From Octopus vulgaris (Eukaryota): DNA of 64,000 nucleotides. Each line of letters opens with the position of its first letter. Within the stretch, counting starts at the first letter, position 1. The position numbers and the translations under genes are program-made. Positions 15,241-64,000 of this stretch are shown in pieces. The notes below the pieces were generated by a model, which saw only the letters and a program-made list of their open reading frames with translations, searched no databases and was not told the origin of the DNA. Where the stretch lies: positions 15,314,001 through 15,378,000 of the forward strand of contig OX597838.1 in NCBI GenBank assembly GCA_951406725.2, read 5' to 3'.

Positions 15241-15350
15241 AGCCACGATACAGTACTTATAATAATCAGTATTTCATCATGTAACAAAAAAGCAAATCTG
15301 TCTGTCGGTCTGTCTATGTATCTATCTATACACACACACACATATTTAAT

Positions 15351-15482
15351 ATTCTTATACAAGAATGTTGTTGACATTGACTTCGAAGTCATGGCCTGCT
15401 AAGACATCATCAGACAGCCCGGACAATGTCTTAGCTGGCTGAAACTAGTAATTCAATGTCAGCAACATTCTTGTTTAAGAAT
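15351..15482. repeat. Fold-back palindrome with hammerhead-like remnants
   Basis: Outer arms ATTCTTATACAAGAATGTTGTTGACATTGA and TCAATGTCAGCAACATTCTTGTTTAAGAAT. Inner GCTAAGACAT/ATGTCTTAGC. Confidence 0.75.
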
Positions 15483-15725
15483 GATAAAATAACCGTCTAA
15501 GGAATAGAAGTATCCATTGCACTACCAGCATATTACTTATGTTTAACCACAGACATACATATGCAAACATATTATGTTCATAAGTTATAAGTAAAGACAA
15601 AGATAAACACGGGTTTATCAAGAATCAAAATTGACTGCAGTCTACTTGCATTGAATTAATAAATAATAATTGGTGTAAGTTGTTCACCAGTACTTGTCCA
15701 TTTTCTGTTTTCTTTATATATATAT

Positions 15726-38369: not shown

Positions 38370-39800
<1,431 letters not shown>

Positions 39801-57821: not shown

Positions 57822-58649
57822 AATAAAACAACTGTTTTACTAGAAATTGCCATCATGAAGGGTCGTTCGTTATGTTACTTGTCTTGTTTTTCCATTTGTT
57901 TCTTTCGTTGTTGCAAAAAAAAAAAAAACGTTCATATTCCATGTATTCGTATTTCGTATCTAATGTTTTCATTTTTTTATGGTCTTTACGTTCTGTGATG
58001 TCCTCTGCGCACATTTGCATATGTATATATGTATAGATATAAATATGTAAACATAGGTGTGTGTGTGTGTATATATGTATGTAAGGAGCTGAACCCTAAT
58101 TATAATTATGTGGATAATTTTACCTGTAAAGGTTATTTTAACGTACCGATCTACTTGGTAAAATTGTTAATTAATTAATTAATTGATTGATTAATTTGAT
58201 TAATAAATTTTACCCTTCTATTATATGTATGTATGTATATATATGTATATATATGTGGGTGGAAGCTTTTCAGGGCAAAATGGACAGTATTGGGTTTGAA
58301 GTGAAACAATTATAGGCAAATTCTCAATTTTACAACCTGAAGGCAGAAGTATAGTCATCACTAAAGTGATTAAGGGCCCTAATCAGTACCAGTGCTTTTT
58401 GTGGCTATTGATTTCTTTTGGCTCTCGTTTCTAACAATACTGATTAGTACCCTTAGTCACTTTAGTGATGTCTATACACACACACACATGTATGTGTGTC
58501 TTTTAATATTTTGCTTATGCATTGTGATACTAATAGCTTGGTGTAGAACTCAATGTATGTATGCTTCTGAATGAAGAGTTAGCCAAGTACAGAGTGGTAA
58601 TGAGAAAAGAGATGATAAAGGAATAGACAATTATCTTATGAACTTCATT

Positions 58650-58734
58650 AGCTTACAGCTGTTTCCACCATAAGACATGGTGCGCTCATAATTGAGTGCC
58701 TGAGTAACTAACACCTTACAGTTTCATCAGAGCC
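58650..58734 (-). ncRNA. Candidate minimal type-I hammerhead ribozyme
   Basis: Minus strand GGCT-CTGATGA-stem II-GAAAC-AGCT-GTA-AGCT. Stem I is 4 bp. Confidence 0.55.
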
Positions 58735-58765
58735 TCAAAAAAAAAAATGTGCACTTCATATTTGA

Positions 58766-58846
58766 GGGTCTGATGAAACTTTAAGGTGTTACTCAGGCAC
58801 TCACTTATGAGTCTACCATATCTTATAGTTGAAACAGCTGTAAGCT
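58766..58846 (+). ncRNA. Candidate minimal type-I hammerhead ribozyme
   Basis: CTGATGA 58770-58776, stem II AACTTTAAGGT/ATCTTATAGTT (10 of 11 pairs), GAAAC 58831-58835, palindromic AGCT, GTA 58840-58842. Confidence 0.55.
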
Positions 58847-58890
58847 AATGAAAATCACTCGATAATCTTTTATGCCTTTGTCATCTCTTT

Positions 58891-58936
<46 letters not shown>

Positions 58937-61900
58937 GACATTACACATCTCTGACAATATCATAGAATGTTCTAATGTGTCTTCTTTTGAAATGATAGGA
59001 TTTGATTTGACAGATTCGGTCACTTTTCTCTGGCAAGTATAGCTGCCCCTCATTATCTCTCTCTACTACTATGTCGGTCAGTTTCATTGAGATACCTGTC
59101 ACCTCTCGCCTGCATTACTTTTCTATCTTTTCATATTTCTACATATTCAGAAAACAGGTAAAAGAGAAATGATTAAAAAAATTGTCTGCATTTTTGTTTT
59201 GATTCTCTGTCATTACTCCACTGAGAGCGAGCGAGTCAAGGAGTCTGTCTGCGTGGCTCAGAGGTGGGGAATTAACTGACATTTTTTGCCAGGAATGTGG
59301 CACACGTGAATCCTGTGAACCTGTCTTTGGCAATGCGACAGTTAAACATAATGATGATAATTGCTGTTTGCAAATACTCTGTACTCCTCCGCAGCCACCT
59401 GCTTGTTCTACCCCTTTCCCCTACCCCAGTTAAGAAGCAGTTAATTGATTTGTACTAGACCGCCTGAGAATGTAAATACCCTCTCTTCACTTCTATAACC
59501 GCATTCCCTCTGTCCCAACACCATCCGTTTCTGTCCGCTTTGCTAAAATGACATGACTCAGTGACACACATTTTTCAGCTTTACACTTGGTTACCTAACC
59601 TACAACAGATCTTCTTTGGCATCCTCTTCCATTTCCATAAAGGGTAGTCCCACAATGGAAAAGATGCTGTGCACGCACCATTGGTTGGTTCACTTTCTCC
59701 ATCAGTTGACCAGCCAATCTCTATCTAGTGACAAGGTTTCCAGCTTTGTTAACAGTAATATTGCATCTGGTTAGATCTGCATTTATTTTAAAACATATGT
59801 CTTTTGCAAAGTTCCTCCAAATGAATTAGGCTCTGTCACTTTCCTTGTGATTGGTGGTATATTTGGTCTTCCCAAAGCTTGTCCAATTAAAATTCAATCT
59901 CTTTGAATGTAAAATGCAGTCATCTGAGAAAGTCTACGCTTGTGCGATTAGCCATTCAAGAGGTCTGTGAGGCAGTGTAAGTGCCTTTATGTGGTTGCTT
60001 AACCAGCTTGAAATAGCAACCAATTCTTAGGTAAATGATACTTTATACCGTCTTCGAAAAGGAACGACCTGTTTGATAGTGTAACCCTAGATATACTATG
60101 TATAAAGAGATCATCACAGCTACAATGCCTTCGATTATAGGTCTGCTTGATCAGTGCTATTCTAGATCTGAGCAACAGGGAGCTAACTACTGAAATATGG
60201 TGATTTTAAATAGATTGCCACTGATCCATCAAAGTCATCGGTAGAGTCCTTCTTCCTTCTTTTTCAAAATATTCCATTTCCTTCAGTCTGAAAATTCAAA
60301 GAAGTGCTCTTTCACTCTGAAGTTCCAGCTTTGGTTGTCAATTTTACCCACTTTGCATTAGTATAAGGTACATTATTAATAGTGATTTTTAATAGATTTA
60401 TGGATGTAGTTCACCCATCTCTATAGCTGCTCAATGCGAGGTAGGCTTAGCCTGCTATTGTGTTGAACATTAGACCTTACTGGAGATGTTATCTTATGGA
60501 AATTTCAACACCCTAATAGAGAATGAAGATTACTCAGGTACATAAACTGAGCTGTTGCGATGATTGTAGTGTTTAGACCTAGATCACATTTGTCCACTTC
60601 CAGTCAGGGAAAATATATGATAAATGATGTTCAAACAGTGACTAATCCATTTTACAGATATGTCAGAGTCACACTATCCTGGCTTACGCATGGTAGTGTG
60701 TGATTTGAAGGATATCTAGCTACTGTTTCTATTTGTTATGGTTGCATGGGTTTTTTTGTTTTTTTTGCTTCTGCTATCAGAAATGTCACCACCATGTAAT
60801 AGTGCAAGTTTTACCTGTCACTTCCTTTCAGCTGTGTGCATGTGTGTTTGCTTCATGTTGTTATCTCTTTTCGCTCACATTTCTCTGGTTCATCTAATCT
60901 AATTTAATCTAATATTGGTTGGCAGACTGCTGTTATGGTGTTGGCATAAATTGTTGAGGAACTAGTGTTTCTACCATGGAAACCTGCTGCTGGTAATGTT
61001 CGTAGTAGTAGTAGTATTAGTGGTAGTAACAAAAGTAGTAGTAGTAGCAGCAGCAGCAACAGCAGCAAATAGTTGATTCATAGACAAGTAATCTCAACCA
61101 GTCTTGTGGTGTGGCATCAACATTTCCTGATATCAGATACTATTAACAAATTTCTTATTCTTTTATTTATACTAAGACATTTTATTCCTTTAGACTTAGA
61201 TATTTACTTCTACTTTATCTTGAAACTTACTTATTTTCTTCTGTTTTCATCGTTCAAACTCAGTAATTTTGATTCCTTCAATTTTGGCCATCTTGATTCC
61301 TTCAGTCTGGGTAATTTTCATTTCTTGAAACACATTTATTTTCCTCCTTCAAACTTAGCTATTTTCTCCTAATTCTTGTTTTCAACTGAATAATCTATTT
61401 AGAATTATTTATAGATAAAAAAACAAAACAAATTGAAATGAACAAAATAAATAGGTTTTATACCAGGCAGCTTAAAGAGGTGATGGTTTTATGTTATTCT
61501 TTATAGAAATATTTTATATTTTGATACTTACTGCAGGTTTGATGGTTATAATACTCTATTAATGAATAAATACATTTTCAATTATCCACAAGTCAATAGA
61601 ATTAGTCAATAGAGTAGGACCAGTGATCCTCAATAAACTCTGCACAGTCTTTGAAATGATGTCTAAGATACCATATGCTGTCGGTTTATAGTACAACTGT
61701 TGTCTTACATTATTGCTTCTTAAGCTGGGCAGTGGTGCCCTCTTGAAAAATTTGTTGAGTTTATAAAGAGGCATTAAATGACATGATACACTATGTACAG
61801 CACGTTCATAAAGTCATTTGACAAATGGAAAAATTTATTAAAATTGCAATGGAAACTGAATAACATAAACATTAATAAAACTATTAATATCATTCAAAAA

Positions 61901-63490: not shown

Positions 63491-63600
63491 GGTTATATGT
63501 ATATGTGTGTGTGTGTTTGTGTATTAGTATGTTACTGTTAGAACAAGAGAATAAAAACTATATAAAAGAACTCAACAGCAGCTTAAATAGAGTAAAGGAA

Positions 63601-63753
63601 ATTTATTGACTTCTATGTTTTTACATGTGTAGGTGTGTTTCAGTCCTTAGAGAGATTCTTAAAACACTTCTGTAAAGGTCAAACTTTTAACTAGTACTTT
63701 GAGAATCTCCCTAAAGAGTGAAACACAATGTGTCAACACAGAAGTCAATAAAT
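63601..63753. repeat. Fold-back palindrome with a decayed hammerhead motif
   Basis: ATTTATTGACTTCT/AGAAGTCAATAAAT and GTGTTTCAGTCCTTAGAGAGATTCTTAAA/TTTGAGAATCTCCCTAAAGAGTGAAACAC. Confidence 0.8.
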
Positions 63754-64000
63754 TCATATGCATATAAGTGTATGTGAAATATCAGTTCCATAGCATAGTT
63801 TTAGTAAAACAAAGTAACTAAAGATAATATATATTTTTTATATTCTTACTGTTTTGTCATTTGGCTGTGGTCATGCTGCATTTTCTCCTGTTTTATTGGT
63901 TATATCAATCTCCATCTTATTTCAGTTTGGCACCACTTTATTGATGTCTGTCAAACTTCAAAGGAGCACAATTCATTGAAGCAAATTTCATCAGTACACA

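Follow-up and report, generated by a model that had tools for sequence, protein, structure and literature searches.

Insertions of Penelope-like elements (PLEs) often contain an inverted, 5'-truncated copy together with a tail of 30-40 bp at one end, as stated in the legend of Fig. 2 of PMC8557442 and in the sections of PMC3846280 consulted here. With regard to the minimal type I hammerheads of metazoan PLEs, the consulted sections of PMC4209133 (published in 2014) report motif pairs on opposite strands at distances of 100-700 bp, next to mostly single motifs that derive from truncated PLEs, and a low in vitro activity of these ribozymes even as dimers. At AT-rich sites, a purified Penelope-like protein, Poseidon of Anolis (PAc), introduces nicks into both DNA strands and extends them, and its reverse transcription (RT) begins at two internal RNA sites bounding the tail; the PAc hammerhead cleaved only with the help of protein, and insertion did not depend on it (PMC11167929). 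Non-LTR retrozymes, according to the consulted part of the preprint (bioRxiv 10.64898/2026.07.22.740005), are non-coding and PLE-related, possess a type I hammerhead and consist of head-to-tail tandem units.

We analysed 64,000 nucleotides of Octopus vulgaris (assembly GCA_951406725.2, contig OX597838.1, positions 15,314,001 to 15,378,000 of the forward strand). This whole stretch is referred to as the window, and positions are counted from its first nucleotide. A first-pass annotation had described a long hairpin with two back-to-back hammerheads at 58603..58893 and had interpreted it as a non-autonomous fold-back derivative of a Penelope-like element. In our analysis, the hairpin very probably consists of two 5'-truncated 3' ends of one repeat family, joined head to head, and is likely the dead product of one Penelope-like insertion. 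The Penelope-like origin is supported by the insertion anatomy (inverted truncated copy, one-sided tail, microsatellite target) and by the ribozyme type, and since no RT-endonuclease ORF could be linked to the family, the membership in this group rests on these two kinds of evidence.

As far as the insertion unit of endonuclease-positive PLEs is described in the consulted sections of PMC3846280 and PMC8557442, it shares with the octopus insertion the head-to-head inverted 5'-truncated copy, the one-ended tail, the strong 5' truncation, the microsatellite targets, the palindromes at some junctions and the hammerhead near the 3' end. However, there are also differences. The tail in octopus has a length of approximately 95 nt, there is no clear target-site duplication, and the window copy contains neither an ORF nor a direct pLTR pair, a cognate ORF not having been found in our searches.

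The inverted repeat at 58603-58893 is real. Watson-Crick pairs are formed at 114 of the 133 aligned positions, next to one 4-nt indel (84% arm identity), and none of 100 shuffled sequences was as stable as the hairpin with its minimum free energy of -168.6 kcal/mol (z = -24). The span of the first-pass annotation describes the hairpin correctly, but not the full insertion. Since the left arm carries the tail of approximately 95 nt and the right arm lacks it, the insertion starts about 100 nt further left, at ~58501-58506. Judged by profile matches and by boundaries in the sequence, the whole insertion, that is both truncated 3' ends of the retroelement family, spans 58501..58896. Its left arm (58600..58739, minus strand) is the inverted 5'-truncated copy and belongs to a long-end class; attached to it is the previously overlooked one-sided tail (58501..58599, minus strand), which is common to other long-end copies. 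The right arm (58742..58896, plus strand) is a 5'-truncated copy of a short-end class without tail. Counted from the GAAA box, the left arm (minus strand) covers positions -84 to +189 of the family profile and the right arm (plus strand) positions -89 to +64. The junction (58737..58754) comprises an A-run (58737-58747) beside the 6-nt palindrome GTGCAC of the family (58749-58754). A (TA)n microsatellite (58896..58930) forms the right boundary and a (CA)n/(TG)n tract (58474-58499) the left one, and both are likely to represent the target site.

Among the 19 of 133 arm positions without Watson-Crick pairing there are four G.U and five A.C appositions on the plus strand. Since G.U is not favoured over A.C, nothing indicates selection on the duplex, and the two arms have likely drifted apart neutrally since the insertion. 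The window contains further local inverted repeats at 306-1115 (220-nt arms, 96%) and at 38421-39691 (174-nt arms, 92%).

Each strand of the hairpin possesses one type I minimal hammerhead core. A descriptor scan of the full 64 kb on both strands returned exactly these two matches (plus-strand core from 58770, minus-strand core from 58730), and a Rfam scan of the window gave no match at gathering thresholds. The plus-strand motif (58766..58846) has its core box at 58770-58776 and its GAAA box at 58831-58834, and the minus-strand motif (58650..58734) has them at 58730-58724 and 58665-58662. Cleavage is predicted after 58842 and 58654, respectively, as had been proposed before. The earlier designation as a full canonical core applies to the core nucleotides CUGANGA, GAAA and UH, which are present in both arms. 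It does not apply to the pairing, as A-U replaces the G10.1-C11.1 pair in both arms and stem I of the plus arm forms only 3 of 4 pairs due to a G.G mismatch. Stem II of this arm has 10 of 11 pairs; the minus arm forms 4/4 pairs in stem I and 11/11 in stem II, of which five are G.U, and has an A.G apposition at the base of stem II. The inner ACTC/GAGT hairpin noted in the first-pass annotation forms once the ribozyme helices are enforced in the folding.

In the 2.8-Gb assembly, an 18-mer taken from the core (3' half) matches exactly at 1,007 positions (496 + 511), and its reversed control at none. Our sample comprises the first 90 retrieved 18-mer positions in genomic order, two of which represent one locus, resulting in 89 loci (10 of the 100 positions listed were left out). 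From 20 copies, we built a family profile and mapped it onto all 89 loci. An adjacent head-to-head copy is present at 32 loci, a distant one at 2 and none at 55. The copies are thus not usually palindromic, since 57 of the 89 motif-anchored loci have no adjacent inverted partner. Tiny second arms were searched for at these 57 loci, and none exceeded the 99% level of a null distribution that is itself inflated by microsatellite letters; one locus (L037) is suggestive only. Few of the 89 loci show pairs of arms on the same strand (for instance L046 and L070). The window copy resembles the non-LTR retrozymes as described in the consulted part of that preprint, in that it is non-coding, PLE-related and equipped with a type I hammerhead. 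However, in contrast to their tandem units, the octopus copies occur singly or head to head, and an assignment of the window copy to the retrozymes was rejected because of its head-to-head arrangement and the rarity of same-strand pairs. Among the papers listed in literature searches, none deals with this family.

At the 89 loci, the 3' ends are bimodal, with maxima near +55-70 and +165-190, and 29 of the 30 classifiable fold-backs combine one short and one long end, so that the tail is one-sided; one is short/short, none is long/long, and 2 of the 32 could not be classified. With independent ends, a short/long combination would be expected in approximately 46% of the cases (p ~4e-9). The 5' ends are scattered, ranging from -225 to -1 in the anchored arms and from -178 to +116 in the partner arms, with only a modest rise just before the ribozyme (29/89 in -80..-51). 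A microsatellite lies within -12 to +30 nt of the 3' end at 59 of the 89 loci, compared to 17 of 89 control sites. In a search for target-site duplications, words common to both flanks were mostly simple repeats, and no clear duplication emerged. The two arms of one locus have a median identity of 82% (40 pairs) and the medians of the single arms to other copies are 64-81%, the former value exceeding the latter for each arm in all but 4 of the 40 pairs. Arms of the same locus are therefore closer to each other than to other copies and yet far from identical, which fits one insertion from RNA of the same subfamily followed by long decay.

Across 120 core-spanning arms, the majority fold combines a helix I of 4 bp with a helix II of 11 bp whose closing pair is G-C. 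One extra A follows A9 and another unpaired base precedes G12, helix III is palindromic, and cleavage is predicted at GUA. This agrees with the earlier assignment as a minimal hammerhead with palindromic stem III. According to the consulted sections of PMC4209133, the 4-bp helix I, the long helix II, the extra nucleotide after A9 and the palindromic helix III are shared with the metazoan PLE hammerheads, whereas the inner hairpin within the 11-bp helix II and the second extra base before G12 distinguish the octopus family, as do the A-U at G10.1-C11.1 in the window arms and the CCGAUGA box (U4C) of many family copies. The G10.1-C11.1 pair itself is present in 72 of 115 family arms, and helix I is intact in the family majority. 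All core nucleotides are retained in 38 of the 120 core-spanning arms, a set that is biased towards an intact 3' half. At the positions U4-G5, these arms have TG in 63 cases, CG in 27 and CA in 21. Judging from these letters, a large share of the source elements might have carried CCGAUGA, and CpG decay would have created some of the cores that look canonical today. Covariation in the helices is weak: one of 21 pairs is in excess, namely the first pair of helix II (9 double changes versus 3.8 expected), with a p of 0.0025 that is uncorrected and ignores relatedness, and with two positions that vary between G and A against U.

The first-pass annotation had also pointed to the same layout in unrelated sequence at 15351 and 63601. 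For the former site this is correct insofar as a second hammerhead-bearing family is present. The stretch 15340-15495 is a decayed fold-back of this family, which is unrelated to the family at 58603, and neither of its arms in the window has an intact core. Of 1,051 candidates, 40 were scored. The majority sequence contains a hammerhead whose helix I has 6 bp; loop III is a 6-nt palindrome, and the long one-sided tail is specific to this second family. In the alignment, inspected by eye, the tail is one-sided at 13 of 16 loci, present on both sides at 1 and not recognised at 2; a crude motif check gives 11, 2 and 3, respectively. One core passing the descriptor is present at 4 of the 16 loci and two at none. 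For 63601, the claim could not be confirmed. The sequence at 63596-63760 forms an inverted repeat whose arms are 72% identical; the plus arm has a GAAAC...GTC-like half, and the repeat contains no recognisable CUGANGA box. At the sensitivity of the search, a genome search with this repeat found only the repeat itself. A microsatellite is present on its left side only, at a distance of approximately 75 nt of non-repeat sequence. The recurrence of the layout, which is real for one of the two sites, is explained by a common insertion mechanism. A new general class of inverted-hammerhead hairpin elements, as had been suggested, is not supported, since the inverted layout is already known from Penelope-like insertions.

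We infer that the head-to-head copies arise from two primings, one per DNA strand and one per RNA start site, and from subsequent joining of the truncated ends. In this mechanism, the element protein would place nicks in both strands of its target, an AT-rich microsatellite, and reverse transcription would begin at two sites of the element RNA that are about 95 nt apart, one for each strand. Both cDNAs would stop early, and their truncated ends would be joined, often via a short self-complementary sequence. In the case of the window copy, both cDNAs would have run 10-25 nt beyond the hammerhead in the terminal repeat, and a core is present on each strand because both passed it. The PAc in vitro system resembles this scheme in the two RT start sites bounding the tail, the priming on both strands and the AT-rich targets. 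However, the main text of PMC11167929 stops short of explaining the inverted-repeat layout by the two sites, and this step is our own. The short/long pairing in 29 of 30 fold-backs is genomic support for linking the two RT start sites with head-to-head inverted copies, and the model of two-strand priming is testable in the existing in vitro system. The window locus as such is of little importance, since it is a decayed insertion stump; the data on its family are of modest value.

Taken further, all stumps might be read as records of Penelope integration, in which a protein dimer would prime both strands from two fixed RNA sites that are unusually far apart (~95 nt, with a comparable tail in the second family), always giving one long and one short end, in which stem II and palindromes would be preferred joining points, and in which many source elements would have spread with a U4C core, suggesting that their cleavage was altered or dispensable. 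We regard the chances of this joint reading being right in all its parts as evenly balanced.

The junctions also leave room for a different origin of the inversion. The element would still be Penelope-like, and the nascent strand would snap back at a native palindrome and prime itself instead of being joined to the product of an independent priming. Self-priming from palindromes at inverted junctions, on an antisense template, has been proposed in the consulted part of PMC3846280. Both arms end inside stem II/loop II (-55..-22) in 7 of the 32 fold-backs, and some other junctions lie at short native palindromes, which is in line with such a process. However, the junction positions vary from copy to copy, and many unite unrelated positions without any symmetry, for instance -159/+49 and -69/+116. 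Furthermore, snap-back alone does not explain the strict short/long pairing. Self-priming is thus rather unlikely as the general origin of the inverted copies, and remains a rival to two independent primings for part of the junctions.

Much less probable is the interpretation of the first-pass annotation, according to which the hairpin is a dedicated non-autonomous fold-back element that is replicated in its entirety, with both ribozymes as part of its design. It draws on the 16 other distinct best BLAST loci obtained with the hairpin as query. Most of them are full hairpins; several have their junction close to the same 6-nt palindrome, and two intact cores are present at 3 of the 16. In the 15351 family as well, a few junction types recur, and several copies join at the core start. 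However, the 16 loci were selected by their likeness to the hairpin query. The motif-anchored sample contains 57 single arms among 89 loci and widely varying junctions; the core is spanned on both arms at 4 loci and intact on both at none. The difference between 3/16 and 0/89 indicates that the hairpin-query search is biased. With U4 required, one core is intact at 15 of the 89 loci, and 28 have one if U4C is allowed. In addition, a single priming event on a hairpin RNA would hardly yield two outer ends that are both precise and unlike each other. Palindromic hammerhead hairpins in animal genomes can therefore be annotation traps, as a hairpin query returns hairpins and thereby mimics a fixed element.

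Apart from its origin, the copy could have been co-opted, either for a regulatory double-stranded RNA (a substrate for editing or small RNAs) or, within a host transcript, for a switchable ribozyme. Whichever strand is transcribed, the ribozyme comes after its own antisense arm, and a duplex of approximately 135 bp is predicted. As the first-pass annotation had assumed, the folding predicts a sequestered ribozyme (-165.8 versus -74.6 kcal/mol with the ribozyme fold enforced), the cost of enforcing it in the full transcript being about 91 kcal/mol. Single arms also favour another fold (-23.7 versus -8.8 and -24.9 versus -11.2) in an energy model that scores neither tertiary contacts nor the dimer helix. 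According to this model, the ribozymes would be trapped in the duplex of any read-through transcript and would not cleave. For a single arm, the fold of lowest predicted energy is an alternative hairpin of the core box with loop II sequence; it is located at 58765-58800 and in the matching stretch of the minus arm, and its pairing letters are also present in the family majority. Both window cores keep all core nucleotides, compared to 38 of the 120 core-spanning arms, and this could be taken as a sign of a retained function. Against co-option speak the 19 arm positions without Watson-Crick pairing, the balance of G.U and A.C among them, the broken stem I of the plus arm and the fact that no host gene is established. 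Contigs of three presumed RNA runs touch the flanks of the hairpin at a depth of ~4-6, none of the listed pieces spanning it, and contigs as such cannot show cleavage, strand or editing. A Cys-rich open stretch at 59292-59430 (plus strand), which follows an acceptor-like site at 59292, was considered as a host exon; it gave no Pfam match, and no donor was found. The host intron assumed in the first-pass annotation is thus only putative. All in all, co-option is about as improbable as the fold-back element. A miniature inverted-repeat DNA transposon (MITE) with a captured ribozyme can practically be dismissed: the insertion is short, palindromic and flanked by AT-rich sequence, but its outer ends differ by the ~95-nt tail, the lengths are variable, and single arms, whose 5' ends are ragged, predominate among the copies, without a fixed terminal inverted repeat or target duplication.

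An RT/GIY-YIG gene was sought for the insertion family of the window by walking upstream with three DNA searches and one pattern search, which reached about -600 without linking such a gene. Beyond this position there were only low-complexity matches, and the family unit was present in 0 of 20 loci of the last upstream search. At one locus (L148:2250-4990), a copy of the window family is arranged head to head with an ORF that is almost complete but broken. We take its motifs to be Penelope-like and RT-endonuclease-like, and its fragments gave no match to Pfam. This ORF was rejected as the autonomous partner, since it belongs to a different, younger family and the unit of the window family is found downstream of it in 0 of 30 loci. 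The 30 best 3'-end loci of the ORF family are 81-92% alike (the locus of the query set aside) and end at two sites of their own. There are 1,814 candidates for this family, whose two 3' ends are ~50 nt apart, whose majority 3' end is without a canonical CUGANGA box and which forms fold-backs, for example at L169, L173 and L184. At L143, as at L148, a copy of the window family stands head to head with the younger family. These pairs are likely the result of nested insertion, and it is also possible that they reflect priming on two different element RNAs. Another hammerhead-like motif was observed at L141 (~800-935); it shares the palindromic helix III, its box reads CCGAAGA, and its loop II contains a long insertion.
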